Source: Fidelibacterota bacterium
GTDB taxonomy: Bacteria > Fidelibacterota > UBA2242
NCBI GenBank assembly: GCA_049975265.1
Contig: JBNGDF010000005.1
Location: forward strand, 10,220-74,219
Length of the DNA stretch: 64,000 nt
Direction of reading: 5' to 3'
A program made the position numbers and the translations under genes. Of this stretch, positions 26,412-52,754 are shown in pieces. The stretch's first letter is position 1; every line of letters starts with the position of its first letter. Under the pieces are notes generated by a model. That model searched no databases, was not told the origin of the DNA, and saw only the letters and a program-made list of their open reading frames with translations.

Positions 26412-27898
26412 TCTACTTCCTTCAATTGTTGGGCAGCGAGAACGGGTTTGGTTTCATTCATATCCGCAGATTTGGTTTTACCAGTGAGAATGGGTGAATT
26501 CAAATTGTCTTTTAGAATGCTGCCCATCTCCTGATGCAGTTCACGCGCCAGTATCTCAATCACACGGGGCATACAGAAACCACCCTGACAGCGTCCTGTG
26601 CCGGGTCGGACTCGGCGTTTGACACCGTCAACTGTTGTGGCGCCGGCATTTCGGTGAATGGCATCTACAATTTCGCCTTCGGTAATATTTTCGCAGCGGC
26701 AAATGATTCTGGCAAACCGCGGCTCTCTTTTGATCAAACTGGCTTTTTGATGATCGCTCAATTCGGCGAAGTGAATGATTTCGCGACGGGTGTCGCGAAA
26801 ATCACGCTTTGGTTTCAGCGCCGGCAGTATTGAATCGACAATGCCGACCACCTTTTCAGCAATTGCCGGCGCTGCCGTAAGTCCCGGTGATTTGATGCCG
26901 GCAACATTTATAAAACCCTTAACTGCCGGTGATTCTGCGATGATGAAGTCGCCGGTGTCGGGTTCGGCACGCAGTCCGGCGAAAATATTGATGGTCTGAT
27001 GCAGTGGAATATTAATAAAACTTTGCCGAGCGGTCTGTTGGACAAATTCCAGCCCCTGTGAGGTCGTCTCGACGGCGTCATCGCGGGAAATCCGTTCGGA
27101 GTTTGGTCCAATCAGAACGTTGCCATGAACTGTGGGGGTAACCAGAACCCCTTTCCCGAGATCACTGGGTGGTTGAAAAACCACATGGCGCACCATTTTG
27201 CCGGCGGTTTTGTCCAGTACATAGTATTCCCCACGGCGGGGCATGATTGTAAATTCCGGTGGCGCGATCAAATTGTTAATTTTATCGGCTTGCACACCGG
27301 CACAATTAATGATGACCCTGGAGCGGAATTGAACAGAGCCGGTTGAAATATTGAAAATTCCATCTGCTTTGGAGATGGAGACAACCGGGCTGTTTAAATA
27401 GAGTTCCGCGCCATTATCGATTGCATTTTCTGCCAGAGCAATCGCCAGCTCCCATGGTCCTACGATTCCGGCGGTTTTGGCATACAGCGCACCGATAGCA
27501 GCGGGATTTATTTCCGGTTCGAGATTGCGGAGCTGGTCGCGGTCGATGATTTCCATCTGGCGGATTTTATTCCGGATGCCCCGTTCATAAAGCTGCTGAA
27601 GGGTTTTAAGATCGGTGTCGTTAAACGCCAGCACCAGCGAACCAATTCGTTTGAAGGGTACTTGGAGACGTCTGCAAAGGGAATCGAACATGGGATTTCC
27701 CTTTGAATTTAGTTCAGCCATCAGGGTACCCGGTTTCGGATCGTAGCCGGCGTGGATAATGGCACTGTTGGCTTTTGTGGTGCCGTTTGAGACGTCGTTT
27801 TCTTTATCGATCAGAGCGATTTTCAATTGATAGCGGGTTAATTCACGGGCGATAGAGGTACCGCAGATTCCGGCTCCGATAATCAGAACGTCATACAT
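26405..27898 (-). CDS. FAD-dependent oxidoreductase of the glycerol-3-phosphate / L-2-hydroxyglutarate dehydrogenase (GlpA-like) type with C-terminal BFD-like [2Fe-2S] domain
   Basis: MYDVLIIGAGICGTSIAREL (GxGxxG). C-terminal cysteine pairs CRCENITEGEIVDAIH...GRCQGGFC are typical of BFD-like domains. Confidence 0.7.
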   Translation of the reverse strand: MYDVLIIGAGICGTSIARELTRYQLKIALIDKENDVSNGTTKANSAIIHAGYDPKPGTLMAELNSKGNPMFDSLCRRLQVPFKRIGSLVLAFNDTDLKTLQQLYERGIRNKIRQMEIIDRDQLRNLEPEINPAAIGALYAKTAGIVGPWELAIALAENAIDNGAELYLNSPVVSISKADGIFNISTGSVQFRSRVIINCAGVQADKINNLIAPPEFTIMPRRGEYYVLDKTAGKMVRHVVFQPPSDLGKGVLVTPTVHGNVLIGPNSERISRDDAVETTSQGLEFVQQTARQSFINIPLHQTINIFAGLRAEPDTGDFIIAESPAVKGFINVAGIKSPGLTAAPAIAEKVVGIVDSILPALKPKRDFRDTRREIIHFAELSDHQKASLIKREPRFARIICRCENITEGEIVDAIHRNAGATTVDGVKRRVRPGTGRCQGGFCMPRVIEILARELHQEMGSILKDNLNSPILTGKTKSADMNETKPVLAAQQLKEVEC

Positions 27899-28099
27899 GC
27901 CGCCGAGTCCTTCATGTTGTTAAAGAATAAATATACATTAATATTAATTCATTGATAATTTCAACTATCTGTCGCCAAAAGTCAATAAAAAATTTTAAGA
28001 CTATCGGTTATCCGTTAATTATATCCCCAAAATTCAGCGATTCTATAAAGATCGGCATTTACTTTTTAAAGGCGGATTAATTGATAGGTAGAACAGATA

Positions 28100-29031
28100 T
28101 TAAGTTAGATGAAGCAGCTCGTCAGCCCCCTGATCATCAATAACCAGAGAGTTGATGATTCCTGCTCTCGCCGCAGCGGCAACGACTTGAGCCCGATCCC
28201 GTCCGCCGGTTACGGCAACCACTTCCGGAATCCTTTTTAACTGTTCCAAGCTGATGCCGATAATCCGGTTTGTATAAGTGGTTTCACATTCATTGCCATC
28301 TTGGTCCAGAAAATGACCACAGATTTCACCCACCATGCCCCGGGATTTAAGGTTATTTAATTTGTGTTTTTCAGAAAATTCATTTGTGTAGAAGACCGAA
28401 TTTACCGGATTACCAATTCCTACGAAAGCCAGGTTGGCATGATCCATCTGGTTTAGGACATATTTAATCTGCTCGTGTTCTACAAAAATTTGGTAGCTGC
28501 GGTGGTCGGGAGTGATTGCGGGGGCTTGCAGACGATAATATTGTCCGCCCCAGCGTTTCGCCAGGCGCCGGGTAAGTTCGATAGCATCATTTTCCTGAAT
28601 CTGGGTAGAAATATCACCGATGGCTTGAATAAAGATATTGCTGTAAGTCGCTTGGGTCGGTTTCATCTCCTCCGTCACAGCATTCAGATAACGTCCCGCG
28701 GCGACACAGACAACTGAACCGGATTTGATTAGTTTGCTGAGAACAGGAGCCGCAAAATGCCCCATCGTGTAGCGATACTGTTCGCTGGTCTGACCGGGGA
28801 TTGTTTTGATGACGACGCAGTGATGAAAATGGAATTCTTCCATCAATTTCTTTTCAAGCACCTGATCACGGGGCGAAAAAGGCTTAACCTGGATTTGGAC
28901 TATTCCCTTTTTACGGGCTTCCTGGAGCAGACGGGACACATTAGCCTGGGATAGTCCGGCTAGTTTAGCTACTTTAGCCTGCCCCAGACCTTCGATGTAG
29001 TAAAGCGAGGCAACAAGCAGTAAAATTTCAT
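28100..29031 (-). CDS. SorC/CggR-family sugar-phosphate-binding transcriptional regulator (locus 1)
   Basis: C-terminal sugar-binding domain in track ORF 28100..28939 (GTG). The HTH LLLVASLYYIEGLGQAKVAKLAGLSQANVSRLL continues in-frame upstream to a stop at 29078-29080, with no in-frame ATG. An ATG at 29029-29031 lies 1 nt out of frame, just before a TTTT/AAA run; an in-frame ATT (29048-29050) lies 6 nt downstream of an AGGGAG SD. Confidence 0.65.
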
Positions 29032-29285: not shown

Positions 29286-29313
29286 GTTGACATTCCCTGA
29301 AAAATGCTTAAAA
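29286..29313 (+). promoter_or_regulatory. Sigma-70-like promoter for the locus-1 TonB receptor operon
   Basis: TTGACA (29286-29291), 16-nt spacer, TAAAAT (29308-29313), about 155 bp upstream of the receptor ATG. Confidence 0.35.
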
Positions 29314-29331
29314 TTAACTTGGCATTTTTAT
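29296..29331. promoter_or_regulatory. Imperfect inverted repeat TGAAAAATGC...GCATTTTTA overlapping the -10 element; candidate SorC operator
   Basis: TGAAAAATGC (29296-29305) and GCATTTTTA (29324-29332) are reverse complements at 9/10 positions. A second GAAAAATGCT copy lies at about 29409. The locus-2 intergenic region has a related perfect palindrome TGAAAAATC-N5-GATTTTTCA. Confidence 0.3.
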
Positions 29332-29467: not shown

Positions 29468-32185
29468 ATGAATAAATTTGGTGTGGTTGTAATAGTTGGA
29501 CTGGTCTTATTGATTTGTATTAGTGCTTTGGCTGCACGACCGGAAAAATCATGGGGAAGATTGTTGATAAAAACACCGGTGATCCGATTGTCGGCGCTAA
29601 TATCTATATTGAAGGTACCAGTATGGGGACGGCATCGGATATCAATGGCGATTACTTTATTATCAACATTCCACCCGGAACCTACACACTGATCTGTTCT
29701 TATGTTGGATATGAACGCATCTCCGTAGTAAATATTGAGGTCAACGTTGACCGGACTACAATTCAAAATTTTTCTATCGCTCCCCAAGCAATTGAGGGTG
29801 AGGAAGTAACGGTTATTGGGACCCGCAAGATTATTGAAATGGACCGCACAAATACAGCGGCTTATGTAACATCAGAAGAAATTCAGACCATGCCGGTGCA
29901 GGAGCTGGGCGACCTTATTCAGCTGCAAACGGGTGTGGTGAAGGATGCCGGTGGTACTTTTCATATTCGTGGTGGTCGCGGTGGTGAAATCGCCTATCTG
30001 ATTGACGGAGTTCCGGTGACGGATCAATATAACGGCGGAAGTTCCATTGCGATGGAAAACAGCTGGGTTCAGGAGCTGCAGGTCATCAGCGGTACGTTTA
30101 ACGCCGAGTTACGGTCAGGCTCAATCGGGTGTCGTCAATATGATTACCAAGGAGGGTGCGAAAAAATTTGGCGGAAATGCCTCGCTCTCAATTGGCGATT
30201 ATCTTTCAAGCCATTCAGATATTTTTATGAATATCGGGGAGATAAATATAAATGAGAAGGACCTCAATCTGAACTTCAGAGGACCGATCTCCCTTATTCG
30301 GAATTTGTCTTTTTACACATCCCTGCGCTATTATCAGACCGATGGCTGGTTATACGGACAGCGTCGGGTGCTTATCGATGATACCGTGCCGATCCAGCAT
30401 TATGTCTATCAGGCTCAACGAAATCCCACTCAGGAGGAGTCACTTTATGGGTATAACATTCCGGACTCGCTGATGAATGGAGACGGCGCCTATATTCCCA
30501 TGAATGGCAGAGAAAAAATTTCCGGTTACGGGAAGCTTTCGTACATGCTTACGCCGAAAATTAAGATCAACTATTCGCTATTTTACAATAAGACGGAATC
30601 CAGGTCCTACAGTGATTCCCGGCGCTACTCTCCTGACGGTGTACGTCCGTCTCATGACCGCAATTATAATCACATTCTCAGTCTGAATCACATCCTCTCA
30701 AATAAGACCTTTTATAATCTCAACCTATCCCATTATGCCAAAAACACCTGGTCTTACCTTTTTGAAAATCCTCTGGATCCGCGTTACCAAGGCATTGCCT
30801 TTAGTGACCAGGGATTCATCTTTGGCGGCACTCAGAACGACCGGTATGATATTTTACGCTCGGCGACATCAGTTAAATTTGATCTGACCAGTCAGATCAA
30901 CAAGTTCAATCAGGTTAAAATGGGGCTCGAGTATAAGCAACACAAACTTGATTACAACTCTTCCAAAACGGTAGCATACGGTGTCAACTACCAGCCGCCC
31001 GATTCTCTGGCGGTGCCTGCGAGAAATACGGCAAATAATAATCATTATCTGGTAAAGCCCTTAGAAGCATCAATATATATTCAGGACAAAATTGAATTCA
31101 GAGAGGTGATCATCAATGTCGGTTTACGTTACGATTACTGGGACCCGGTAGCTCAGATCCCCGTGGATTTACGCGCCAGAACAAATATCTATGATGGTAT
31201 TCGACTGGATTCGGAACTCAGGAAAGCCAAAAAACAGATGCAACTGAGTCCCCGATTGTGTTTAGCATATCCTATTTCCGACCGGGGAGTATTTCACGTT
31301 TCCTACGGTCACTTTTTCCAGCTGCCGCGTTTCAATGCAATTTACAATAATTACGAATATGAGATTGAACTGGGCGGGCTGCGTACAACAATGGGCAACG
31401 TGAATTTGAAACCGGAACAGACAGTAGCTTACGAGTTGGGACTTCAACAGCAACTTGCGGCGGACTACAGTATTGACATTACCGTTTATTATAAGGACAT
31501 CCGTAATTTACTGAGTCAGGAAATCATCAGTACCTATGATGACAAGGTCTATGCCCGCTATATTAATCGTGATTACGGCAATGTAAAGGGTATCATCTTT
31601 TCGGTGAACAAAGCCTATTCGAATTATTTTTCCGGTGGGATTGATTACACCTATCAGGTGGCGATGGGGAATGCGTCTGATCCGAATGCTGTCTTTACAA
31701 GATATCAGACCGATCCACCGGCGGAGGACGAAAAGCAGGTGGTCCCTCTGGACTGGGATCAGCGGCATACCTTGAATGCGTCGGCGATTGTTGGGAATCC
31801 GTCCAACTGGACCTTTGCGGTAATCGGGCGGTTTGCCACAGGAATGCCTTACACGCCGACCAACCCCGGTAGTCAGTTGACGACCCAGTTTGAAAACAGT
31901 GCCCGCAGACCGGCGACGTATAACATTGACCTGAATATCTATAAATCGGTGAAATTGCAGCGCTATAAGCTGAATCTCTTTTGCAAGATATTCAATTTGA
32001 CCGACCGTTTAAATGAGATCAGAATCTATTCCAGTACCGGCAATGCCCGTCATCCCTACAGGACCATTCCCAATATGGAGGTGCTGCAAAACAATCCGAA
32101 TTTCACGGTGGATGAGGTGGATTTGAATCCTACCTACTATTCCAGTCCCCGACGGGTTTTATTCGGTATAAGTGTCGATTTCTAA
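29468..32185 (+). CDS. TonB-dependent outer-membrane receptor (CarboxypepD_reg + plug + barrel), locus 1; reading frame broken by two compensating 1-nt frameshifts
   Basis: Signal peptide MNKFGVVVIVGLVLLICISALAA in frame A. GKIVDKNTGDPIVGANIYIEG...plug domain in frame B from about 29527. Returns to frame A at about 30108 (NAE|YGQAQSGVVNMITKEGAKKF). Paralog at 56024..58735 is colinear and intact. C-terminal ...VLFGISVDF. Alignment with the paralog indicates one extra nt near 30106-30110. Confidence 0.7.
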
Positions 32186-32200
32186 AAGAGGAAAATATTC

Positions 32201-35200
32201 ATGTGCAAATCAATAATAATACGATGCCTTGTTCCTGTTACCCTTCTGTTTCTGACCAAGCAGGGGTTGTTCGCCGGAGCTGATGAGCGTACCACCGGGG
32301 TTCATGATGGTAACCTTGTAATTACCCGCTATTCGAATTATGGCAACCTGGGGCACCGCGATTCCAGTCCGCGGATGGAATGGCCGAAGGGGACCGGTTT
32401 TGTCTACGGGTTTGAATTTATTATGATGGCGGGTGCTGAAGTGCTGGACGTTAACGGCGATACAGTCCATATCGTATCGGAATCCTATTCACATCCAACC
32501 AGCGGGGATATTTCGGCAGACGGAACGCACTGGTACAGCTGGCAACCGTTGCCGGGTTATTACAATATGGGACCCGAAAACAAGCTGTTATATCCGGCGA
32601 TGAGTCATAAACCAGAGACCTGGCCGGCAAGCTGGCCTCACGACTACCCCGGCGAACCCGGAACCCGTGACGGTTTGTGGAACGGTGAGTTTGGTGCTTA
32701 TACGCGCGCTGATCAGGAAAGTTACTATGTCATGGACGATCGTGACAATGACGAGTACGAATATTATCCCTTTATCGGAAGTTCTGTTGATTCATCGGGC
32801 TATCCCTACGGGAGGCGTGGTCTTGGATTTGAGGTGAAAATGCGCGGCTATCAGTGGGCGGCAGTAGAGGCGGAAGACATTCTGATTGTGTGTTACGATA
32901 TTGCCAATGTCAGTCATAAAAACCTCGAGACAGTTGTATTCGGTATGTACGTGGATGCCATGGTGGGTGGTACCAATGACAATCCCGATCATGCAACATT
33001 TGACGATTTGGATGATATTACCTATTGCTGGGATCATGATGGTGTGGACAATCGGGGTCGCCCGGGGCTCGGTTTTTTCGGATTTGCTTTTTTGGAAAGT
33101 CCCGGTGATCCGCTAAATGGAGTAGATGATGATCAGGATGGGTTAATCGATGAACGTCAGGATAATCCTCGCGGCAACTATATTTTTGGTTCAATCGGCA
33201 ATTTTGGAGAGCCCTGTTGGCACTGGGAAGGCGATGAAGATGGGGATTGGCGCCCTTATTTGGATGAGAACGGAAATGGACAGTGGGACCACGGTGAATT
33301 CATCGGTGATGATGTCGGTTCGGATGGGATCGGACCATATGACCAGGACTATCCGGGACCAGATCCTGATGGAACCGAAGCCAACGGAATGCCCGATGAC
33401 GGCGAACCGAATTATAATAAGACCGACAACGATGAATCGGATCAGATCGGCTTGACCAGTTCAGTATTGTGTGAAGCCCAGAGTATGGCACCCGACGAGC
33501 GCACCTGGAACCATATGAAGCCTGGCCTGTTTGCCTGGGTTCAACCTTCTAATCTCGCGTTTGTTTACGGCTCGGGCTATTTTAAGGTTATGCAAGCAGA
33601 AACCCGCAAATTTGCCATTGCCTGTCTGTTTGGAATTGATGAAGATGATATATACCGTAATAAAAGAACTATGCAGCGGATTTACGATGCCGATTATAGC
33701 TTTACTAAACCGCCGCTGAAGCCGCGTTTGACGGCTATAGCCGGTGATGGTAAAGTGATTCTCAGTTGGGATAAACGCGCTGAATTGTCCATTGATCCAA
33801 TCTATAAAGAGGATTTTGAAGGATACTTAGTCTATCGCTCTACAGATCCCTCATTTAATGATATTAAGACGGTCACCGATGCCTACGGTGCGCCGATTTA
33901 CTGGAAACCGATTGCCCAGTACGATCTGGTTGACGGTCTGAAGGGTCCGCATCCAATCGCAATTGAAGGGACCGGTGCGCAATTTTACATGGGTAAGGAC
34001 ACCGGTCTGAAATACTACTACGTCGATGAAGATGTCCAAAACGGGCGTACCTACTACTATGCAGTCTGTTCGTATGACAAGGGATATGACACGGACTTTT
34101 ATGAAAAGGGGTTCTCCCGCTATGATCTCCTGGCTCCGGTAGCGCCTTCGGAGTGTTCAAAAATTATTCAGACCGACCTCGTGGGCAATGTCACCAGTGT
34201 TGACCGTAACTGTGCCGTCGTCGTGCCCAATGCCCCCAGCGCCGGGTATGTGCCCGGTCAGGTGGAGGAAATTGAGCATATCGGCATTGCTACCGGCGAG
34301 TATGCCGTCAATGTTATCGTGCCCGATAGCGTTAAAGATGGTCATACTTATGAAATCACTTTTCTGGATGATTCGACGGACTGGCGCAATACAAAGAGTG
34401 TTAAAGTTGAAAATGTAACGGCGGGAAAGATTTTATACCAGAATGATTATAATGAATTCGAGATCAGTAACGAACTTTTTGAGGGGCTCCAGTTCGAATT
34501 TGACAACGATTCAACCTATATCAAAGAGTATGGCTGGCGGGTGGGTAATTGCAATCTGCCCGTAGAAGTGGACACGGCGTGGGGTGTCAAAATTATCCGG
34601 GTTCCGGAAGATCTGGAAATAAGGGTACTTGGTCCCAATGCCGACACCACCTACAATCCCCTTGCATGGGAGCGGTATCCGGTCAATTTTCAGGTGTGGA
34701 GTACGACCCGCAATGAACAGATGGATTTCATGTTCAGTGAACCGATTAATAAAGACAGTATGCTGAACGCCGGTGATAAGGTCTATCCGGTGATTAATGC
34801 CAAAGGATTTAATTACAACGATATATGGGAAATTTACTTTCGCCACGACACCACCCAAAAGGATGTGATTTTACCGCAGCCGGGTGACATTTTTGAAATT
34901 AAGGTCTATAAACCCTTTAACTCCGATGATACGCTCCGTTTTACAACAGCAGGTTCCTTCGTCAGCAAAACAGAAGCGAAGAGCAGTCTGGACGATGTAT
35001 ATGTCGTTCCCGATCCCTATGTGGTGACAGCCAGCTGGGAAAAACCACTGTTTTATGCCAGCGGTCGGGGTGAACGCCGGGTCGATTTTGTCAATCTGCC
35101 GCAGAAGTGTACGATTCGGATTTTTACCATGAGTGGAAAGCGGGTGCGGACCCTGCACCACTCCGCTGATTTAACGGATGATGGAACGGAATCCTGGGAT

Positions 35201-35305
35201 TTACTGACCGAAGACGGTCTGACGGTAGCCTTTGGAGTGTATATTTTTCATGTGGAGGCACCGGGGATTGGCTCCAAAATTGGAAAATTTGCCATTATCA
35301 AATAA
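32201..35305 (+). CDS. Large secreted Ca-binding-repeat protein with FN3-like domains and T9SS C-terminal sorting domain (locus-1 cargo A)
   Basis: Signal peptide. Many DxDxDG-type acidic repeats (DDDQDGLIDE, DENGNGQWD, DPDGTEANGMPDDGEP). FN3-like block (...VILSWDKRAELS...YLVYRS...). C-terminus ...CTIRIFTMSGKRVRTLHHSA...GVYIFHVEAPGIGSKIGKFAIIK resembles a T9SS C-terminal sorting domain. 15 bp downstream of the receptor gene. Confidence 0.75.
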   Translation: MCKSIIIRCLVPVTLLFLTKQGLFAGADERTTGVHDGNLVITRYSNYGNLGHRDSSPRMEWPKGTGFVYGFEFIMMAGAEVLDVNGDTVHIVSESYSHPTSGDISADGTHWYSWQPLPGYYNMGPENKLLYPAMSHKPETWPASWPHDYPGEPGTRDGLWNGEFGAYTRADQESYYVMDDRDNDEYEYYPFIGSSVDSSGYPYGRRGLGFEVKMRGYQWAAVEAEDILIVCYDIANVSHKNLETVVFGMYVDAMVGGTNDNPDHATFDDLDDITYCWDHDGVDNRGRPGLGFFGFAFLESPGDPLNGVDDDQDGLIDERQDNPRGNYIFGSIGNFGEPCWHWEGDEDGDWRPYLDENGNGQWDHGEFIGDDVGSDGIGPYDQDYPGPDPDGTEANGMPDDGEPNYNKTDNDESDQIGLTSSVLCEAQSMAPDERTWNHMKPGLFAWVQPSNLAFVYGSGYFKVMQAETRKFAIACLFGIDEDDIYRNKRTMQRIYDADYSFTKPPLKPRLTAIAGDGKVILSWDKRAELSIDPIYKEDFEGYLVYRSTDPSFNDIKTVTDAYGAPIYWKPIAQYDLVDGLKGPHPIAIEGTGAQFYMGKDTGLKYYYVDEDVQNGRTYYYAVCSYDKGYDTDFYEKGFSRYDLLAPVAPSECSKIIQTDLVGNVTSVDRNCAVVVPNAPSAGYVPGQVEEIEHIGIATGEYAVNVIVPDSVKDGHTYEITFLDDSTDWRNTKSVKVENVTAGKILYQNDYNEFEISNELFEGLQFEFDNDSTYIKEYGWRVGNCNLPVEVDTAWGVKIIRVPEDLEIRVLGPNADTTYNPLAWERYPVNFQVWSTTRNEQMDFMFSEPINKDSMLNAGDKVYPVINAKGFNYNDIWEIYFRHDTTQKDVILPQPGDIFEIKVYKPFNSDDTLRFTTAGSFVSKTEAKSSLDDVYVVPDPYVVTASWEKPLFYASGRGERRVDFVNLPQKCTIRIFTMSGKRVRTLHHSADLTDDGTESWDLLTEDGLTVAFGVYIFHVEAPGIGSKIGKFAIIK

Positions 35306-35333: not shown

Positions 35334-36401
35334 ATGCCAGTTATTAAAAGTATTCGGAAAATCGTAATTCTCTTTGCCATACTGGGGTTTTCAACAGTTC
35401 TGATGGCGCAGTTTACGGAAGATGAATATATTGAAAGTGTCTATAAAGAAGATGTCATGAAGCGGGGTACTTCGGCGGCACCCTTTCTTGAAATCGGTGT
35501 CGGCGCCAAAGCGCAGGCGATGGGTGGCGCTTTTACGGCGATTGCGAATGATGCCAGCGCCCTGTTCTGGAATCCGGCTGGCATCACCCAGATTCAGACG
35601 ATATCCGCTTCGGTAATTTATACAGAATGGCTGGCGAATACGCGGCATGAGTACTTTGGCGCCGTCATACCGTTGGGAGGGCGTTTCGCCTGGGGTCTGA
35701 ATGCCACAATCCTTGATTATGTGGATGAACAGCCGGTGCGGACCATTGACCAACCGGAAGGTACCGGCGAGTACTGGACGGCTTCGGATATGGCGTTGGC
35801 GACTTCCTTTGCCGCCCGGATTACCGACCGCTTTTCCTTTGGCATGAGTGCCAAATATATCCGCATGCAGATCTGGAACGAGACCGCCAGCGCCGGAGCA
35901 CTCGATTTTGGCGTCTTGTATAAATCGCAGTTGAAAGGACTGACCCTGGGAACGAGCATTTCCAATTTTGGAACCACACTGAAGCTTGACGGTCGTGATT
36001 TGGTGCGGGCGTATGATGCCGATAAGCAGCATTATTCGAATGACCAGCTGAATGTGCTTTACAAAATGGAGAGCTATCCGTTGCCGCTGCTGTTCCGTTT
36101 CGGAATTGCCTACAGCATTACGCGATCTAAAAACCAGTTGACCCTGACCTGCGATCTGAATCATCCGTCCAATGATATTGAGAGCATCAACGTGGGTTTG
36201 GAGTACTGTCTGCTGAATATTTTTTATTTGCGGACCGGTTACCAATCGCTGTTTGATGATGACAGTGAAAACGGCTTGACGTACGGTTTCGGGCTGGAAA
36301 CGCCGCTGAAAAATTCCTTCGGTCTGGCGTTTAGTTACTCTTTTGCCGAGTGGGGATTGCTGGAAAACGTTCAGCGTTTTTCGGTTGATTTGAAAATGTA
36401 A
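35334..36401 (+). CDS. T9SS-associated outer-membrane beta-barrel (PorV/PorQ/PorP-like) encoded inside the cargo locus
   Basis: Signal peptide. Conserved N-terminal block LEIGVGAKAQAMGGAFTAIANDASALFWNPAGI (the A-MGGA...D-SA-FWNPAG pattern typical of PorV-type shuttle barrels). C-terminal aromatic ending. Paralog at 61955..63028. Confidence 0.5.
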   Translation: MPVIKSIRKIVILFAILGFSTVLMAQFTEDEYIESVYKEDVMKRGTSAAPFLEIGVGAKAQAMGGAFTAIANDASALFWNPAGITQIQTISASVIYTEWLANTRHEYFGAVIPLGGRFAWGLNATILDYVDEQPVRTIDQPEGTGEYWTASDMALATSFAARITDRFSFGMSAKYIRMQIWNETASAGALDFGVLYKSQLKGLTLGTSISNFGTTLKLDGRDLVRAYDADKQHYSNDQLNVLYKMESYPLPLLFRFGIAYSITRSKNQLTLTCDLNHPSNDIESINVGLEYCLLNIFYLRTGYQSLFDDDSENGLTYGFGLETPLKNSFGLAFSYSFAEWGLLENVQRFSVDLKM

Positions 36402-36460: not shown

Positions 36461-39058
36461 ATGATGAAAGTATGGAAAATTGTTACTCTGTTTTTCATGA
36501 TATTAGTCGTTTTGAGTCCCGGAATTCTTACGGCTCAATGGGGTACCTGTCTGCATTTTACTCAGATGGAGCATGACAAGGTAACGGTCTATGATACGCC
36601 CAGTTTGTGGCCCGGAGTCCTGAACGCCGGAACAGTGGAGTTATGGTTCAAACCGGATACGATATTCAAGAGCGACACCCACGGTCCGGATTATACCTAT
36701 ATTTTCTGTAAAAATATTTCCGGAAACTGGGTTGGCGACATGGGTCTGCACTGGATTCGGGGCGAAGGAGACATGGCTTGCTTCATCCAGAGCGGTGATG
36801 CCGCCAATTATCCCACACAGACAGTCAGATCGAATAACGATGTGTTTGAAGCCCGCTGGTATCATGTGGCTTATGTCTGGGATACCGCCGATTCCATGCG
36901 TCTGTTTATTGACGGCAAAATGCAGGATGATATCGAGCCCGATCCGAACTCGGTAGGCGAGTACTGTTATGGCGTACCAAACGGAACGCAGCTGATCAAT
37001 ATCGGAACCGGTGCGCAGGATATGTGGTATTCTCGTTATGAAACCTTTCCCGGTTGCATTGATGAGGTCCGGGTTTCGGGTGTAGCCCGTTATACTGAGG
37101 ATTTTGAAGTGCCCGATGAACCGCTTGATGCGGATGTGTATACGGTCGCCCTCTGGCATTTTGATGAAGGCGAGGGCAATATTGCCAATGATGCCAGTGG
37201 TTACGGCTTTACCGGTACGCTGGGAGACCCCGATTCGGCACTGGGCGTAGCCACTCCGGAATGGGTTGAGGTGATTCGTGATCCGAAGATACTGATTAAT
37301 GAAGTTTTAGCCGATCCGCATGATGATGTTCAATACGGAGATGCCAATGGTGACGGGGTCCGGAATGCCTCTCAGGACGAATTCGTTGAGCTAGTTTGTG
37401 TGGCACAAAAACCGGTGGATATGACTGGCTGGAAACTGGGTGACGACGATGCGCTGAATTTTCAGTTTCCCGATGGCTATCTACTTCAGCCCAACGAATT
37501 TGTGACCATTTTCGGCGGGGGCGACGTCAGCGGATTTCCGGGATACAGTTCCGATCTTCTACTGACAAAGGTGTTTTCAGCCGGCGGGAGCATCGGCGAC
37601 GGACTGGATGAAGCCGGAGACTATGTGGTGATGCAATCGGCGAACGGGCTGGATAACACCTACCTGGCATTTGGCAGCGTAAGCGGGGATCCGACCGGGA
37701 GCGCCGTCAGTGAGCTGACCTGGGAATTTTCTCAGAGTACTGCCGCCAATGCCGCCAATGATAATTCCATTACCCGCAGTCCTGATGCCGGACAGGATAC
37801 GGATGACCCATTCACTGAACATCTGAATGTCAGCAGCGATTACTTCTCACCCGGCAAGACGCTGGAAGGTTTTTCGACCTTAGCCTATACATTGACAATT
37901 AATATATCGCCAGCCGGTGCCGGAACTGTTGAGTTAGATGAAGAGAGTGCCGCCAAAACCGAATTCGGCTACGGAGACTTGGTCACCCTGACCGCCCATG
38001 CGAACGGGCTTTACATTTTTGATAAATGGTCCGGTGATGAGAGTTCTATGGTGAATCCGGTGATCATCTCCATGAAGAGTTCGAAAGTCATTACGGCGGA
38101 ATTTATTGAAGCCTTTCAACGACCGGTCACTATTCTGATCAATGAAATTAATGCTGACCCGTCGAACGATCCGATTCTGGGTGACGCCAATGGTGACGGT
38201 TCACGCCATCCCCAGCAGGATGAGTTTGTGGAGTTGGTGAATGTCAGTACGGAGACGGTGGACCTGAGCGGCTGGATGGTCGGTGATGACGAGCGGATTA
38301 GTTTTACCTTTCCGGATGGCGTAACCATCGGACCGGGTGAGTTTGTCACCATATTCGGCGGTGGCAACATTTCCGGAGTACCGGGTTTTAATGTTAATCC
38401 GCTGAAGAGCCGGGTGTTCGTATCTGCCATTCGTGATACTCTGGGGAACGGACTTGCCAACTCTGGTGAAACGGTGGTGGTCATTTCTGCGGACTCCTCT
38501 TATGCGATGTATTGCAATTACGGCAGCCGGTACGGACAGGGACCGCCGGTCAAGGATTTTAATGCCGGCATCTACTACAATATGCGCATGGATGCGGCAA
38601 CTCCGGGCGACCAGAATCAATCGATGACCCGTTATCCGGATGGCAGTATTGATGTACTGGATAATTTTGTACTGCATACCGAAGTGAATGAGGATAAAGA
38701 ATCCTCGCCGAATTTGACTGTTGACGGCCAGGAAAGCATCACTGTCAATGCCATCGGAGTTGGAAGTGCGGATTTGCCGAGAACATTTCAGCTCTATCGC
38801 AATTTTCCGAATCCCTTTAATCCGACCACGACAATCCGGTTTGCGACACCCAAACAGACACTGGTCAATCTGGCTGTTTATAACATGTTGGGACAGAAAG
38901 TCGCGGATCTGATGAATAAAGAGTGTGCCGCCGGGATTTATGAAGTGCAGTGGAATGGTAAGAACATCGCCGGTGAACCGGTTCCCACCGGCATTTATCT
39001 CTATAGTATTCAGGCGGACGGTTTCCGACGGACACATAAAATGATTCTGATGAAATAG
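36461..39058 (+). CDS. LamG/ConA-like domain + two lamin-tail domains (LTD) + T9SS C-terminal sorting domain protein (locus-1 cargo B)
   Basis: WYHVAYVWDTADSMRLFIDGKMQDD (LamG-like). Two LTD blocks: ILINEVLADPHDD...DEFVELVCVAQKPVDMTGWKLGDDD...FPDGYLLQPNEFVTIFGGG and ILINEINADPSND...DEFVELVNVSTETVDLSGWMVGDDE...FPDGVTIGPGEFVTIFGGG. C-terminal YRNFPNPFNPTTTIRF...VYNMLGQKVADL...GIYLYSIQADGFRRTHKMILMK is a T9SS sorting-domain motif. Confidence 0.8.
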   Translation: MMKVWKIVTLFFMILVVLSPGILTAQWGTCLHFTQMEHDKVTVYDTPSLWPGVLNAGTVELWFKPDTIFKSDTHGPDYTYIFCKNISGNWVGDMGLHWIRGEGDMACFIQSGDAANYPTQTVRSNNDVFEARWYHVAYVWDTADSMRLFIDGKMQDDIEPDPNSVGEYCYGVPNGTQLINIGTGAQDMWYSRYETFPGCIDEVRVSGVARYTEDFEVPDEPLDADVYTVALWHFDEGEGNIANDASGYGFTGTLGDPDSALGVATPEWVEVIRDPKILINEVLADPHDDVQYGDANGDGVRNASQDEFVELVCVAQKPVDMTGWKLGDDDALNFQFPDGYLLQPNEFVTIFGGGDVSGFPGYSSDLLLTKVFSAGGSIGDGLDEAGDYVVMQSANGLDNTYLAFGSVSGDPTGSAVSELTWEFSQSTAANAANDNSITRSPDAGQDTDDPFTEHLNVSSDYFSPGKTLEGFSTLAYTLTINISPAGAGTVELDEESAAKTEFGYGDLVTLTAHANGLYIFDKWSGDESSMVNPVIISMKSSKVITAEFIEAFQRPVTILINEINADPSNDPILGDANGDGSRHPQQDEFVELVNVSTETVDLSGWMVGDDERISFTFPDGVTIGPGEFVTIFGGGNISGVPGFNVNPLKSRVFVSAIRDTLGNGLANSGETVVVISADSSYAMYCNYGSRYGQGPPVKDFNAGIYYNMRMDAATPGDQNQSMTRYPDGSIDVLDNFVLHTEVNEDKESSPNLTVDGQESITVNAIGVGSADLPRTFQLYRNFPNPFNPTTTIRFATPKQTLVNLAVYNMLGQKVADLMNKECAAGIYEVQWNGKNIAGEPVPTGIYLYSIQADGFRRTHKMILMK

Positions 39059-39112: not shown

Positions 39113-39262
39113 GATAGCTTGGGAAAATTTTTTGTCCCCCTGAACAGTCCATTGATTTGACGGAAGTATGTTGTGATTTTTCTACTGAACATTGAAGAAA
39201 GGAGTTCTTCGAAAAATTGATGGGGTAAGCACTCTGTAAATCCGTTGAAAAAGGAGCCAATA

Positions 39263-40039
39263 ATGCGAAATAATCTTAAAATTGTATGGCTGGGACTACT
39301 GCTGGTTTTCGGCGCCTCATGTGCCCGAGTTGACAACCGCATAATCACCGCCCATCGGGGAGCGTCTGGCACTGCACCGGAAAATACAATGATTGCAATC
39401 CAAAGGGCGATCGAGCTGGGCGCCGGTTTTTCGGAAATTGATGTTCAGGAGACTGCCGATGGCGAAATCATTTTACTCCATGACAAGACGTTGGAGCGGA
39501 CCGGCGGTGTCGTCTGGAATATCTGGGATACACCCTATGACTCGTTGAAGAAGATTGAGGTGGGCTCCTGGTTTGCGCCGGAATATGCCGGTGAACCGGT
39601 GCCCCGGCTGGCGGATGTCATAGATGCTGTTAAGGGAAAAATAAAACTGAATATTGAGCTGAAAATCAACGGTCATGAAAAGGAACTGGTAGAAAAGGTG
39701 GTAGACCTGATTCATGAAAAAAAATTCCAGTCGGAATGCATCGTTACCAGTTTTGATCTGCAATCTGTCCAGAAAGTTCGTCAACTGGATAAAAATCTCA
39801 AGGTCGGGTTGATTTTCAGTAAATATCCGGAAAATGTGGATGTGTTTTCTCTGGATGTGGATCTGCTGAGTGTGAAATATACGCTGGTGGATGAAGAATT
39901 TATGCGGAAAGCCCGCGCTAGTGGTAAGGATGTGCATGTCTGGACCGTCAATGACTCGGAGATGATGCAGAAGCTTCTGGATTTGGGCGTAACGAGCATT
40001 ATTACCAATTATCCGGGGAAATTGAGGACGCTGATCTGA
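39263..40039 (+). CDS. Glycerophosphodiester phosphodiesterase (GDPD family), lipoprotein
   Basis: IITAHRGASGTAPENT...EIDVQETADGEIILLHD (GDPD catalytic His/Arg and Glu/Asp blocks). AAGGAG SD 6 nt before the ATG at 39263. Lipobox ...VFGASC. Confidence 0.8.
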   Translation: MRNNLKIVWLGLLLVFGASCARVDNRIITAHRGASGTAPENTMIAIQRAIELGAGFSEIDVQETADGEIILLHDKTLERTGGVVWNIWDTPYDSLKKIEVGSWFAPEYAGEPVPRLADVIDAVKGKIKLNIELKINGHEKELVEKVVDLIHEKKFQSECIVTSFDLQSVQKVRQLDKNLKVGLIFSKYPENVDVFSLDVDLLSVKYTLVDEEFMRKARASGKDVHVWTVNDSEMMQKLLDLGVTSIITNYPGKLRTLI

Positions 40040-40058
40040 GAGTGACAGGAGAACAGTC

Positions 40059-42056
40059 ATGAAACGTCGCATATTTAGTTGTGTAATGCTTCTACTTGTC
40101 AGCGGACAGACCCTGCCCGCACTGGACCTGCCGGCTGTTTTTGGTGATAATATGGTCCTTCAGCAGAAAAGCAAGGTGGCGGTCTGGGGCTGGGCATCTC
40201 CAAATGAGAAAGTGAGGGTCTGTGGTAATTGGAGCCGGCGCAGAGCATCTGCCATTGCCGATGAAAGTGGAAAATGGCTAGTTCGATTAAAGACGCCCAA
40301 AGCCGGAGGACCCTATACGTTGACGGTTTCTGCGGATACGACGATTGTGTTCCGGGATGTATTGATTGGTGAGGTCTGGTTCTGTGCCGGGCAATCCAAT
40401 ATGGATATGTGGATGGCCAAAGGCGCCGGAAAAGCCGGTGTTTTGAACTATCAGGAAGAAATTGCAAAAGCCGACTATCCAAATATACGTATGTTTAAAG
40501 TTACGCAAAAATTGTCTGAATCACCAATGGAGAATTGTGTTGGCGCCTGGCAGAGATGCACTCCGGAAAGTGTCGCCAGATTCAGTGCCGTAGCGTACTA
40601 CTATGGGTTGGAATTGTATCAGGAATTGGGCGTGCCGATCGGGTTGGTTCAGAGCTCCTGGGGTGGCTCACCGGCTCAGGCGTGGACCAGCCGCGAGGCT
40701 CTGGAAAGCCATCCGGATTTTCGATATTACTTAAATGAACTTGAAGAAATTGTTCAGAACGAGAAGAACAAGGAGCACTTAAAGCGGGAGTACGAGGAAG
40801 ACCTCAATCGCTGGATCCTGGAATCTTATGCCCTGGATAAAAAAATCTGGCGGAGCTGGATTTCACCCGAGCTGGATGACAGCGACTGGCAAAAAATGAA
40901 TTTACCAAGCAGCTGGGAGAGCGCCGGACTGCCGGATTTTGACGGCACGGTCTGGTTCCGGAAGCATTTTACCGTGCCCAATGAATTTCTTGGTAAAGAG
41001 TTACTATTTGATCTTGGACCAGTCGATGACATTGATCGGACCTTCATCAACGGGAGAAGGATAGGTGAGATTCAGGAACGGGGCAACTATAAAGTATCCC
41101 GTGAGTATCCAATTCCGACGGACTTGCTGAAGCCCGGTGACAACGTGGTTTCCATCCGCGTAACCGATTATAAGGGTAGTGGTGGAATTTATGGCGGGAG
41201 TGATCATTTGCGCATTGTTACGGCGAACAATCAGAAGGTGGTTACCGATCTCTCCGGCGAGTGGCTCTATAAAGTCGCTTATGATATTAAAGACCATCGT
41301 CCGATCCCGGAAATCCCGGGCAAGATGACAAAAACAACACCGACGGCGCTGTTTAACGGTATGGTGGCGCCGTTAATTCCTTATACTATAAAGGGGGTTA
41401 TCTGGTACCAGGGCGAAAGCAACCGATCTGAAGCCTATGTATATCGGGAACTGTTTCCGTTGATGGTTTCGGATTGGCGGGAGCGCTGGCAGTTGGGTGA
41501 TTTCCCGTTTTACTATGTCCAGATAGCGCCCTTTGGTTATAAGAGTGAACATCCGATTGCTGCGGAAGTGCGGGAATCCCAACTGGTATGTCTGAACACG
41601 ATTCCCAACTCAGGTATGGTTGTGACGATGGATGTTGGAGATATTGATGATATCCATCCCCGTGACAAAAAAACAGTGGGACAGAGGTTGTCACTCTGGG
41701 CATTGGCGAAAACATATCATAGAAAAGGGGTACCCTGTTCCGGTCCTTTATACAGGGAAATGGTCGTAGAAGATAATAAGGTACGAATATATTTTGACTT
41801 TGCTGATGATGGTTTAAAAATAAACGGTGATGATCTGTCACATTTTTCAATTGCCGGTGCTGACAGCGTTTTTCAGCCGGCGAAGACAAAAATTGAAGGT
41901 AATACGATTCTTGTGTGGAATGAGAATATAACAAAACCGATTGCTGTACGTTTTGGCTGGAGTAATACGGCGGAACTGAATCTGTACAATTCTGCCGGTC
42001 TGCCGGCATCGCCTTTTCGCACCGATGACTTCCCGGTTTCCACTCAGAGAAAATAG
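40059..42056 (+). CDS. Sialate-O-acetylesterase-like (SASA/DUF303) carbohydrate esterase with central galactose-binding-like domain
   Basis: Signal peptide. GEVWFCAGQSNMDM (SGNH/SASA-type GQSN nucleophile block). Second conserved block ...YQGESN.... No T9SS sorting domain. Confidence 0.65.
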   Translation: MKRRIFSCVMLLLVSGQTLPALDLPAVFGDNMVLQQKSKVAVWGWASPNEKVRVCGNWSRRRASAIADESGKWLVRLKTPKAGGPYTLTVSADTTIVFRDVLIGEVWFCAGQSNMDMWMAKGAGKAGVLNYQEEIAKADYPNIRMFKVTQKLSESPMENCVGAWQRCTPESVARFSAVAYYYGLELYQELGVPIGLVQSSWGGSPAQAWTSREALESHPDFRYYLNELEEIVQNEKNKEHLKREYEEDLNRWILESYALDKKIWRSWISPELDDSDWQKMNLPSSWESAGLPDFDGTVWFRKHFTVPNEFLGKELLFDLGPVDDIDRTFINGRRIGEIQERGNYKVSREYPIPTDLLKPGDNVVSIRVTDYKGSGGIYGGSDHLRIVTANNQKVVTDLSGEWLYKVAYDIKDHRPIPEIPGKMTKTTPTALFNGMVAPLIPYTIKGVIWYQGESNRSEAYVYRELFPLMVSDWRERWQLGDFPFYYVQIAPFGYKSEHPIAAEVRESQLVCLNTIPNSGMVVTMDVGDIDDIHPRDKKTVGQRLSLWALAKTYHRKGVPCSGPLYREMVVEDNKVRIYFDFADDGLKINGDDLSHFSIAGADSVFQPAKTKIEGNTILVWNENITKPIAVRFGWSNTAELNLYNSAGLPASPFRTDDFPVSTQRK

Positions 42057-42074
42057 AAAGCAGATTACCATCCG

Positions 42075-44039
42075 ATGAGATTTCAAAAACACATTTTTCA
42101 GGTAGCGGCCACTTTTTTCCTCACAATAGGGAGTGGATTTTTATCAGCAATGCCCATTTTCAGCTACTATACCGGAATGGATTCAACCGATGGAATTATA
42201 TATAATGCAGTGGAGATTGTTGGTATTTCCGATCCGGAAGAGGCGGTTGCCCGGGGAGAATCCGGCTGGGGATATACAGTTCCTCAGGCAGCCCGTTTTG
42301 ATACGGATTCCTCCTATATTATTACCGCAGAGAACGTTCAACTGAGTTATATCGGCGATCACACGCTATCCGGTGAAATCTGGGTGCGACCATATCGCGG
42401 CAATGGTGTCTTGTGGACGTGGGGCGATACGAGCGGGGCAAATTTTTTACGGATGTCTTTGAAAGAGGATTGCTCTATCCGCCTTGAGCGGAGCATTCTG
42501 GACAGTGTTTATGTGGTTGATTCCGGGCGGACGCTGGATACAAACCGAATGCAATATATCCGCTGGGTCAGTGAAGTTCTGCAAGATACGCTGTATCAAT
42601 CATTATGGATAAATGGACAGATCAGTTCTCAAAACAGAGACTACCTGCTGTCCGGCACAGGGTTTGTCATTTTAAGGTCCCCTTTTCAGCTGGGTGGCGT
42701 ACTGAGTTCGGACAGTGCGGCACAGGCTTTTTCCGGGGAAATCCATGCGGCTACCCTTACGAATGTTTTGTCGCAATACGAACTGTCCGCTTATCTGCCC
42801 TATGACGGCAGCCGGTTTTCCGGGATTCCCTATTATTGGGATTACGACCATTGGAAAAGTTATACCATTTCACCGACACCTGTTGGGGCGCTGATATTTG
42901 TGCCCTATGTCCACGATGATTTTGTTCCTCAGGGGCTGACCAACTCCTTTGAGGACCCAGACTTCAGCGGTGATGGAATGATTTTTATTTCCATGTATAA
43001 CAAGACGATTAATAATGTCATTGGTCTGAAGCGCTCAATTGTTGTCGAGATGGATCCCGGAAATCATTTTGCGGTGCGGCGCTGTTTTCGGCTGCGGGGA
43101 CAGCTGCAATACAGCCATAATGGCGGCATTGCGTATAAAAATAACCGTATTTATATCGCCGGTTCGGGCTATATTGAAGCTTATCAGATTCCTGTCTACG
43201 ATGGCGAAGGAGACGCAAAGTATCAGGACCTGTACCCAATGTCTTCCGGTTTATACGATGTGGAGGGCTCGACCTCTTTTACCACCATTTTTAATGATAC
43301 TCTCTGGGTCGGTGATTTTCGTGAAGAGGATCAAAGCAATCCCTATTTGCGGGGCTATCCTCTGGACTCAAATGGCGCCATTGGCGGTACCCCAAAATAT
43401 TATCGCCTGCCGCTGCAAACTCAGGGTTGTACCTGGGGTATATACGCCGGCAGGACATACCTGTTTACTTCGATCAGTTCGGGCGGTACAAATAACAGTC
43501 TGTTGCACCGGTTTGATCGGAATGAGCTATCCGTCTATGCGGTTCCGGAGCCCGACAGAACCCTTGAATTTCCGTCTGGAGCCGAGGATATCAGTTTTGA
43601 CGGTGACGGCGATCTGTGGTGCGTTTCAGAGTCGGGTGCGAAGTACTATCAGCTGCGTGATTCCTATCCCTGGCGCCAGTTTTTTCCTTTTATCTATGAA
43701 ATAAAAAATTCAGTCCTGTTCAGCGATATTGATACGACGTTGAATCTGCAATTTCAACAAAACCGGATACCATCAAAATTTTCGGTTCAAAACTATCCGA
43801 ATCCGTTTAATCAACAAACGGTCATTACCTATTCAATCATTGAAAACTCTGTCATTGATATGGTTCTCTATGATATTTGTGGCAGAGAGCTGTCCCGACT
43901 GGTCGATCAGGAGTCGAAGCCGGCGGGCAGCTATCAGTTTGTCTGGCATACGCCGGAGCTGCCGACAGGGATATATTTCATTCTGCTGTCGGATAATCAC
44001 GGTCAGCAGGCTATCCGCAAGCTGGTTTTTCTAAAGTAA
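42075..44039 (+). CDS. Hypothetical secreted protein with LamG-like domain and T9SS C-terminal sorting domain
   Basis: C-terminal VQNYPNPFNQQTVITYSI...VLYDICGRELSRLVDQ...GIYFILLSDNHGQQAIRKLVFLK is a T9SS sorting-domain motif. N-terminal region GEIWVRPYRGNGVLWTWGD is LamG-like. Confidence 0.6.
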   Translation: MRFQKHIFQVAATFFLTIGSGFLSAMPIFSYYTGMDSTDGIIYNAVEIVGISDPEEAVARGESGWGYTVPQAARFDTDSSYIITAENVQLSYIGDHTLSGEIWVRPYRGNGVLWTWGDTSGANFLRMSLKEDCSIRLERSILDSVYVVDSGRTLDTNRMQYIRWVSEVLQDTLYQSLWINGQISSQNRDYLLSGTGFVILRSPFQLGGVLSSDSAAQAFSGEIHAATLTNVLSQYELSAYLPYDGSRFSGIPYYWDYDHWKSYTISPTPVGALIFVPYVHDDFVPQGLTNSFEDPDFSGDGMIFISMYNKTINNVIGLKRSIVVEMDPGNHFAVRRCFRLRGQLQYSHNGGIAYKNNRIYIAGSGYIEAYQIPVYDGEGDAKYQDLYPMSSGLYDVEGSTSFTTIFNDTLWVGDFREEDQSNPYLRGYPLDSNGAIGGTPKYYRLPLQTQGCTWGIYAGRTYLFTSISSGGTNNSLLHRFDRNELSVYAVPEPDRTLEFPSGAEDISFDGDGDLWCVSESGAKYYQLRDSYPWRQFFPFIYEIKNSVLFSDIDTTLNLQFQQNRIPSKFSVQNYPNPFNQQTVITYSIIENSVIDMVLYDICGRELSRLVDQESKPAGSYQFVWHTPELPTGIYFILLSDNHGQQAIRKLVFLK

Positions 44040-44075
44040 GGTACGGTGGAAGTGAGTCGTTTAAGAAAGATAACA

Positions 44076-45763: not shown

Positions 45764-46043
45764 ATATCAATGCTTTGCAAAAGGGGGCAATAAGATTTAT
45801 TTGGCTTGAATGAGCCGGTAAAGGGCGTAGAAAGGCAATTTTTTTATTGACTCTGATGGAAATATTTTTTAAGGTATAGTGGAATTTATATTATTGAATA
45901 AATATTCAAATGAAGTTCAGAATCTTACCCTCCCAAAAAAAAATATCTGGTTTCAGACAGGGGTACGATGGTTAAAAGAAAGGAGGCAGCAAACAGACTT
46001 TGAGAAAGGCGTTGAACATTTTTAATAAAGAAAAGGAGAACCT

Positions 46044-49346: not shown

Positions 49347-49371
49347 TGTGTCAAAGTGGAAAACTGAAAAA

Positions 49372-49400
49372 GGCTGCCTTTCATCGGGCAGCCTTTTTTT
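49372..49400 (+). terminator. Rho-independent terminator
   Basis: GGCTGCC-tttcatcg-GGCAGCC stem followed by TTTTTTT. Confidence 0.7.
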
Positions 49401-49574
49401 CTCATAATGAAAGCGGCTGTTGGAAATAATATTGGTGAATATTTTCATTGACTTTTAGCCAGATTTTCCGCAAACTTTATTGGAATTATTATTTGTGTAT
49501 ATTTATTCTAAGTTTGAATTTGCCTGAATGCTCCAATTTTTTAAAATTTCAAATGTCAATCAAAGGATGCCCTG

Positions 49575-50459: not shown

Positions 50460-50475
50460 AAGGAAGCGACCGGGC

Positions 50476-51849: not shown

Positions 51850-51869
51850 AACATTAGCGGAAAAGGAAC

Positions 51870-52721: not shown

Positions 52722-52754
52722 TACTGTAGTGATTTAGATTACAGGAGACATCAG

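Follow-up and report, generated by a model that had tools for sequence, protein, structure and literature searches.

The stretch of DNA described here (the window) comprises 64,000 nucleotides of a contig from a Fidelibacterota bacterium (GenBank assembly GCA_049975265.1, contig JBNGDF010000005.1) and contains two intact genes, barrel 1 and barrel 2, for outer-membrane beta-barrel proteins. An earlier reading of the sequence, referred to below as the original prediction, had associated these genes with the secretion system of type IX (T9SS). It is the whole cassette, and not the barrel gene alone, that occurs twice in the window. Each cassette consists of a gene for a TonB-dependent receptor (TBDR), which opens the cassette and is absent from the original prediction, a gene for a protein of about 1,034 residues encoded beside the barrel (hereafter X), the barrel gene, and a gene for a protein with LamG and LTD domains (Table 1). 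The TBDR, X and barrel genes, to which we refer as the triad, are co-oriented, and the intergenic gaps are 15-54 nt in both cassettes. The two barrels are 51% identical across 332 residues (BLASTP E 1e-127), which is far above chance. A Shine-Dalgarno-like GGAG/GAGG lies a few bases 5' of the start of both barrel genes, the ATG of barrel 2 being located within a longer mechanical open reading frame (ORF) that begins at 61733, and both products carry a signal peptide with predicted cleavage between A and Q. The conserved N-terminal block from which the original prediction started is present in both proteins. It reads AQAMGGAFTAIANDASALFWNPAG in barrel 1, where the match to the proposed motif is exact, and ALSMGSAFTAVANDVTALYWNPAG in barrel 2, where it shows conservative substitutions. 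The observation of the barrels as such is confirmed.

At the cleavage sites predicted for the signal peptides of both barrels and of the LamG cargo, the mature protein would in each case start with glutamine (LMA/Q, LWA/Q, LTA/Q and VTA/Q, with the slash denoting the cut). An N-terminal glutamine after cleavage is the 'Q-rule' of Bacteroidetes, which is said not to cover the whole Fibrobacteres-Chlorobi-Bacteroidetes (FCB) group (PMC5837995); here the pattern is seen in a metagenome-assembled genome (MAG) of Marinimicrobia.

Both barrels were compared to the family models of NCBIfam and Pfam. The PorV/PorQ family model NF033709 (cut-off 90 bits) matches barrel 1 with 209.7 bits, residues 46-354 covering positions 1-325 of the 326 of the model, and barrel 2 with 201.4 bits, also at full length. 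For the Pfam model of PorV (cut-off 27 bits), the score of barrel 1 passes (34.5 bits) and that of barrel 2 lies below (24.9 bits). Scores for the equivalog models, given for barrel 1 and barrel 2 in turn, are 73.0 and 68.9 bits for PorV (NF033710, cut-off 250; mainly the N-terminal half), 94.9 and 84.4 bits for PorQ (NF033711, cut-off 220), 69.2 and 90.1 bits for PorV2 (NF052325, cut-off 325), and 27.8 and 24.6 bits for BamG (NF053685, cut-off 250). Every one of these cut-offs is missed by both barrels, and the best matches at the equivalog level are to PorQ and PorV2. Because the match to NF033709 is full-length, yet every equivalog score is far under its cut-off, the barrels are members of the PorV/PorQ family that form a subfamily of their own. 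The family-level resemblance that the original prediction had drawn from the N-terminal block therefore stands, and NCBI already labels the same protein as 'PorV/PorQ family protein' in a Fidelibacterota (Marinimicrobia) MAG.

The structural comparison leads to the same family. When Protein Data Bank (PDB) sequences were searched with a profile of 58 barrel homologs, the sole relative was PorV of Flavobacterium johnsoniae (6h3i_F, E 2.5e-15), with TodX and CymD appearing only at E 0.09-0.6. The AlphaFold2 model of barrel 1 has 14 strands and an N-terminal hatch (pLDDT 84, pTM 0.77), and its top Foldseek match is the Flavobacterium PorV of a substrate-bound translocon (8gl6_F, E 1.4e-16, TM 0.69). 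FadL (E 7.5e-10) and other FadL/TodX structures (about 1e-9) come as a clear second to PorV, with TM of about 0.5. The hatch region is the most conserved part of the barrel family (mean column conservation 0.75), its NPA(G) motif being visible in the sequence of both barrels. Of the six periplasmic turns, four are less well conserved than the hatch and the extracellular loops. Loop L4 (residues 214-252) is modelled with low confidence, yet contains the invariant residues G220, D228 and P251.

In order to see which genes accompany such barrels elsewhere, we took one genome per species, which gave 80 loci from other species (denoted by L numbers), and classed the genes by tblastn with the window proteins. 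The gene order TBDR-X-barrel was found in 54 of the 80 loci and TBDR-barrel-X in 10 (nine by script, and L072 read by hand). In another 10 loci X and barrel are present and the contig ends before the receptor, and for 5 there is no upstream DNA. The lone apparent exception is L039, where a run of N at 9510-9610 stands directly 5' of an X-type C-terminal domain, beside a murC-like gene; we rejected this locus as a triad lacking X, the run of N lying inside X and representing a scaffold gap or misjoin. Wherever the flanking DNA of a locus is long enough, X adjoins the barrel and the TBDR is beside them. The loci belong to Calditrichota, Ignavibacteriota, KSB1, Rhodothermales, Gemmatimonadota, Marinimicrobia and assorted 'Bacteroidota' MAGs. 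In genomes of Marinimicrobia, Ignavibacteria and Caldithrix, the barrel homolog always follows a CarboxypepD_reg-Plug receptor of about 900-960 residues and a protein of 1,034-1,182 residues without Pfam match, and starting from homologs of X recovers the same triad. More than one copy per genome is found: L030, L054 and L055 contain two triads each (in tandem in L030 and L054), and several loci derive from single MAGs, namely JAKQNR01 (L011, L027, L028), CAYWTB01 (L006, L043) and DYKB01 (L030, L056). Together with the two paralogs in the window, these copies agree with the proposal of the original prediction that the barrels are specific to their loci and are not a single housekeeping protein.

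The partner to which the barrel was proposed to be dedicated did not hold in the same way. The original prediction placed each barrel between two T9SS cargo genes and regarded it as the shuttle or anchor of this flanking cargo. In the first cassette, the downstream gene does encode a type-A sorting domain, which passes both models (Por_Secre_tail 29.8 bits, cut-off 27; TIGR04183 34.3 bits, cut-off 23). The upstream gene is that of X, which matches no family and whose C-terminus is of sorting type only in profile-profile comparison. In the second cassette, the C-terminus of the downstream product is unseen because the gene leaves the window. Across the survey, only 4 of the 80 loci have the LamG/LTD cargo as a full-length neighbour, which speaks against a dedication to flanking cargo, and the constant partners are X and the TBDR. 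Ordinary sorting-domain genes outnumber barrels in the loci, with several cargo genes per barrel. The comparison to SprF and SprB, also made in the original prediction, is useful as an analogy, since there too the gene of a dedicated carrier or anchor barrel adjoins that of its single client, a protein with a type-B sorting domain (PMC10202324). It does not extend to membership: SprF/PorP barrels are a different family, neither barrel matches the PorP/SprF Pfam model at E <= 1, and SprF/PorP pairs include no TBDR. Taken as a whole, the earlier interpretation is partly supported.

The remaining genes of the loci vary. Phosphoester genes like those around the cassettes of the window are common to only 5 of the 80 loci, and a triad specific to glycerophosphodiester use was rejected on this count. 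Sorting-domain proteins with CBM4_9 or CBM20, glycoside hydrolase (GH)-like genes, ABC sugar-binding proteins and LamG-phosphatases are among what other loci encode. Because the accompanying genes vary by locus, the triad is a generic module set into substrate-specific loci, a place that SusC/SusD occupy in Bacteroidia, and since the neighbours differ in this way the role of the barrel is independent of the substrate. A gene for a SurA-like peptidyl-prolyl isomerase (PPIase; Rotamase_2 and SurA_N, about 500-600 residues) was also observed just 3' of the triad in 36 of the 80 loci (examples in Table 1). The window contains no homolog of it. This protein may be a fourth, chaperone-like component.

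Protein X begins with a signal peptide of the signal-peptidase-I type, without a lipobox as read from the sequence, followed by a conserved N-terminal half, FN3/Ig-like sandwiches, a variable middle (about residues 700-930), a linker (931-958) and a sorting-type domain (959-1034). It has no family match in Pfam or NCBIfam (E <= 0.1 for NCBIfam), neither Pfam (2025) nor NCBIfam (June 2026) contains a model for it, and no relative was found among PDB sequences, the search returning one Fn3-like chain at E 0.47. X homologs number more than 3,700, are 45-65% identical across phyla and are all called 'hypothetical'; an exhaustive profile search gave 1,033 clusters at 50% identity (E <= 1e-30). The AlphaFold2 model (pLDDT 69, above 85 in the C-terminal half) is a chain of FN3/Ig-like sandwiches for which Foldseek returns generic FN3 chains (TM <0.1) and, weakly, PorZ (5m11, E 6.6e-5, TM about 0.1). 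The N-terminal third is modelled with low confidence despite its high conservation, and because of this low confidence no fold was assigned to it. An Asp-rich stretch at about residues 300-420 contains DxDxDG-like motifs and resembles calcium-binding loops. X does not match the SusD family, its model consists of all-beta sandwiches and it has no lipoprotein signal, so that it lacks the features of a SusD-type lid.

When the last 75 or so residues of X were aligned by hhalign to 77 type-A sorting domains from the same loci, the probability was 94.5% (E 8e-8, 53 columns). For the isolated C-termini, the only Pfam matches, seen in 7 of 10 homologs, were to FlgD_ig, CHU_C and Por_Secre_tail, all sub-threshold (12-23 bits, cut-off 27). 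From these profiles, X appears to end in a divergent T9SS-type sorting domain. The conservation of this domain and of the linker preceding it (YVVPDPYV...GRGERR) is 0.73-0.77, compared to 0.48-0.53 in the middle of the protein, and equals that of the best parts of X. Judged from the alignment, conservation of this kind seems unlike that of a disposable signal. Residues 939-957 are conserved, yet have pLDDT <50. That they and loop L4 of the barrel are both conserved but poorly modelled is what would be expected of interfaces that depend on a partner.

Precedents for a barrel that holds or docks a partner exist. Extracellular loops of PorV bind sorting domains (PMC10994853). PorU and PorZ of the Porphyromonas gingivalis attachment complex keep their sorting domains and remain bound to PorV and PorQ, and it has been hypothesised that cognate PorV-like barrels shield sorting domains from cleavage (PMC10202324). 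BamG, a FadL-like barrel, is a pure docking platform on BamA in a complex that includes PPIases (PMC12578637). Because the gene linkage is invariable, and in combination with these PorV/PorQ and BamG precedents, we read the TBDR, X and barrel as an operon-encoded uptake module of the outer membrane of which the barrel would be the third subunit. X would be exported by the T9SS. The dedicated barrel, in place of the general PorV, would then take the sorting domain of X and keep it uncleaved, and X would thereby stay on the cell surface. With the barrel lying against the TBDR in the membrane, X would come to lie above the receptor and there act as a lid or a partner that binds substrate, as SusD lipoproteins do with SusC in Bacteroidia. 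The module of this window would serve a glycerophosphodiester/organic-phosphate locus with GDPD, acid phosphatases, a glycerol-3-phosphate oxidase and a major facilitator superfamily (MFS) transporter. We give about an even chance to a surface complex centred on the TBDR in which the barrel is an obligate subunit and most likely holds X by its sorting domain, as PorQ holds PorZ. In PorQ-PorZ and PorV-PorU, as proposed here, a 14-strand barrel of NF033709 retains a surface protein by an uncleaved sorting domain (PMC10202324), and X has a conserved sorting-type C-terminus. Unlike those barrels, the ones described here match no equivalog, are multi-copy and are encoded in an operon with the presumed client and a TBDR; X is not PorZ-like overall, and the present system is known from genes and models.

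A further-reaching version is offered tentatively, as we regard it as somewhat more apt to fail than to hold. In this version, the three proteins would form one physical complex, a T9SS-based and lipoprotein-free counterpart of SusCD, with the barrel docked on the receptor and permanently holding X by the uncleaved sorting domain, X acting as lid or substrate catcher, and the whole, instead of SusCD, being the organising unit of loci for the use of polymers and organophosphates. As in SusC/SusD systems, a CarboxypepD_reg receptor is followed by the gene of a large surface protein, and there are many paralogs per genome, each in a substrate-specific locus of secreted enzymes. Lipoprotein lids other than SusD have been proposed earlier beside TonB-dependent transporters of Bacteroides (bioRxiv 10.1101/2023.03.17.533168). 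The differences are that the receptor falls outside SusC/RagA (the TIGR04056 match is confined to the N-terminal domain and plug and has 74.3 bits, the cut-off being 368), that X is neither a SusD nor a lipoprotein and has a sorting-type C-terminus, that the PorV-like barrel is an obligatory third gene, and that the accessory enzymes bear T9SS sorting domains and not lipid anchors.

The following results weigh against a barrel that holds X within a receptor complex. The C-terminal domain of X lies under every curated sorting-domain cut-off (TIGR04183 and PF18962), and because of this, its export by the T9SS is something that we infer. Annotation of the ORFs of the window, including those of 1..28 kb, gave neither T9SS core genes nor a canonical porV. 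That the organism uses a T9SS follows from several window proteins that carry above-threshold sorting domains. Each cassette has one damaged partner, the TBDR in the first and X in the second, with both barrels intact. Finally, we compared pairwise divergences across the 52 loci with all three ORFs intact and the window, and in this set no mirror-tree signal specific to the barrel and the sorting domain of X was found. The divergence of the barrel tracks that of the TBDR most closely (r 0.90, partial r 0.64); the values are r 0.81 and partial r 0.15 for the N-terminal half of X, r 0.79 and partial r 0.18 for its middle, and r 0.69 and partial r -0.11 for its sorting domain. For length-matched blocks of 104 columns, the corresponding values were 0.77 for the TBDR, 0.68 for the N-terminal half of X and 0.73 for its middle. 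The tracking of the TBDR by the barrel may be due to constraints shared by membrane barrels, or to a conserved interface of barrel and X that varies too little; it also fits a direct barrel-barrel contact.

Because the co-divergence fits such a contact, we kept the explanation that the barrel is a receptor-associated scaffold or assembly partner, which would dock laterally on the TBDR, as BamG does on BamA and PorV on SprA, perhaps together with the SurA-like PPIase, and would not bind the sorting domain of X specifically. We consider it unlikely, if still the strongest of the competing explanations, and it partly overlaps with the proposed retention of X rather than excluding it. Besides the co-divergence, the frequent PPIase gene downstream of the triad is in its favour, and there is a documented precedent in BamG, a FadL-superfamily barrel of the Bacteroidota beta-barrel assembly machinery (BAM), which docks side-on to a larger barrel in a PPIase-containing complex and is used there to attach surface proteins, not as a channel (PMC12578637). 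BamG chains are also among the Foldseek matches of the barrel model. However, the similarity is very weak (28 and 25 bits to a BamG model on which members reach 250; TM 0.44-0.47, compared to 0.69 for PorV), and BamG is essential, usually single-copy and unlinked to a TBDR. Two membrane barrels may merely share rates and constraints, and a scaffold of this kind leaves the highly conserved sorting-type domain of X unexplained.

A dedicated T9SS shuttle, in which the barrel replaces the general PorV at the translocon for the cargo of its own locus, carries it out and releases it without a lasting complex with X or the receptor, is closer to the original prediction, and we judge it distinctly improbable. 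PorV is the nearest solved fold and the sole sequence relative in the PDB, type-A sorting-domain proteins abound in the loci, and PorV, the general type-A carrier at SprA (6h3i, 8gl6), both binds sorting domains with its loops and docks laterally on another barrel (PMC10994853). The cargo genes vary, however, and are several per barrel, whereas the linkage to X and the TBDR is strict and would not be needed by a general cargo shuttle. PorV is moreover a single housekeeping gene with many cargos and no linkage to a TBDR, and barrel 1 is shorter (355 compared to 367-402 residues) and far under the PorV equivalog cut-off (73 bits against 250).

It is very improbable that the barrel is a FadL-type channel through which hydrophobic or amphipathic compounds generated by the locus, for example fatty acids or lysolipids from phospholipids, would enter in parallel to the TBDR. 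The FadL-superfamily fold with its N-terminal hatch and NPA(G) motif would suit such a channel, as would the handling of glycerophosphodiesters by the locus in the window. Weak matches to Toluene_X (PF03349, FadL/TodX) exist, but they are confined to the N-terminal hatch and remain below the gathering cut-off of 29.7 bits (27.7 and 19.7 bits), compared to about 200 bits for the PorV/PorQ family. The same barrel also stands beside loci for unrelated substrates, such as those with CBM4_9, CBM20, GH-like or ABC sugar-binding genes. The profile search with which the original prediction proposed to expose unrelated FadL transporters thus did not identify the barrels as such. That the barrels are simply the housekeeping PorV or PorQ orthologs of the organism, located here by chance, is hardly credible: the NCBI name and the top equivalog-level matches to PorQ and PorV2 point that way, but all equivalog scores are far under their cut-offs, two copies lie within 27 kb and several per genome occur elsewhere, including the tandem triads, and the linkage to the TBDR and X is invariable.

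The genes around the cassettes (25134..28939 and 39245..55778) form an organic-phosphate/glycerophosphodiester set. In addition to those listed in Table 1, the locus contains two GDPD genes in all, acid phosphatases, a HAD phosphatase, an MFS transporter, RpiB and an iron-dependent alcohol dehydrogenase (Fe-ADH)-like gene. In the close relative L088, cassette 1 is intact, with a receptor ortholog of 905 residues, and the genes corresponding to 39245..49346 are in the same order and intact. In our assembly, TBDR 1 contains two frameshifts (near 29520 and near 30108) and its signal peptide is in a third reading frame. The reading frame of X2 meets two stop codons, TAG at 58856 and TAA at 59798, and is shifted near 60200; X2 is probably a pseudogene in this assembly. 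The damage reflects either an error-rich assembly or decaying loci. Terminator-like sites occur at chance level, with none in the intergenic gaps of either cassette, and the only notable site in a promoter scan was an 11/12 promoter-like match at 29287..29314, 5' of receptor 1. This picture is weakly consistent with an operon. Far from both loci, near the start of the window, 703..909 on the minus strand weakly resembles a sorting domain (31% identity with the C-terminal domain of the LamG/LTD protein, E 5e-6).

Table 1 Genes of the two cassettes and their surroundings. Positions refer to the window, except for the SurA-like PPIase genes, whose positions refer to the survey locus named.
Feature	Position	Strand	Remarks
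Barrel 1	35334..36401	+	355 aa, intact; PorV/PorQ-family 14-strand outer-membrane barrel with N-terminal hatch
Barrel 2	61955..63028	+	357 aa, intact; PorV/PorQ-family paralog
Cassette 1 TBDR (CarboxypepD_reg, Plug, 22-strand-type barrel)	29468..32185	+	62-71% identical to intact receptor 2, in two frames
Cassette 1 X	32201..35305	+	1,034 aa
Cassette 1 cargo (LamG, LTD x2, InlB-B-repeat, type-A sorting domain)	36461..39058	+	865 aa
Cassette 2 TBDR (CarboxypepD_reg, Plug, barrel)	56024..58735	+	903 aa, intact; Pfam
Cassette 2 X, disrupted	58790..61928	+	61-69% identical to X1, in two frames
Cassette 2 LamG(/LTD) cargo	63063..64000, runs past window end	+	Laminin_G_3; 43% identical to 36461..39058 over 308 aa
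Glycerol-3-phosphate oxidase-like	26405..27898	-	
Second SorC regulator, probable	28100..28939	-	Synteny with L088 only
GDPD	39245..40039	+	Pfam/NCBIfam
SASA-type esterase	40059..42056	+	Pfam/NCBIfam
Sorting-domain protein	42075..44039	+	Pfam/NCBIfam
Purple acid phosphatase, split by frameshift at about 45125	44046..45763	+	Pfam/NCBIfam
LTD x3, Big_5 and sorting-domain protein	46377..49346	+	Pfam/NCBIfam
SorC-type regulator	54699..55778	-	
SurA-like PPIase, example	L019:11198-12757		
SurA-like PPIase, example	L009:11059-12639		
SurA-like PPIase, example	L041:15238-16770		
SurA-like PPIase, example	L044:14616-16433		

Known barrels of the PorV/PorQ family belong to the secretion machinery proper. 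The subfamily described here is distinct, and its genes are tied to those of a nutrient receptor and of X, whose family is very large and widespread yet wholly unannotated. In the papers searched, we found neither a description of the triad nor one of a linkage between PorV-like barrels and TonB-dependent receptors in these phyla. The family-level label of the barrels was already known, and what appears to be new is the obligatory coupling of this subfamily to a TBDR and to the unnamed X family. If the three proteins form a complex, it would show how FCB phyla that are abundant in the environment, such as the Marinimicrobia of the ocean and the Ignavibacteria and Calditrichota of sediments and sludge, build surface uptake machines without SusD-type lipoproteins. 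Such a complex would also widen the idea of a cognate barrel that protects and retains a sorting domain, which has concerned two components of the machine (PorU and PorZ), to an entire class of clients, and would make the triad a marker for annotating substrate-utilisation loci outside Bacteroidia. A SusCD counterpart, if true, would span Marinimicrobia, Calditrichota, Ignavibacteriota, KSB1, Rhodothermales and Gemmatimonadota, and would assign a function to the nameless X family, which comprises more than 1,000 sequence clusters.

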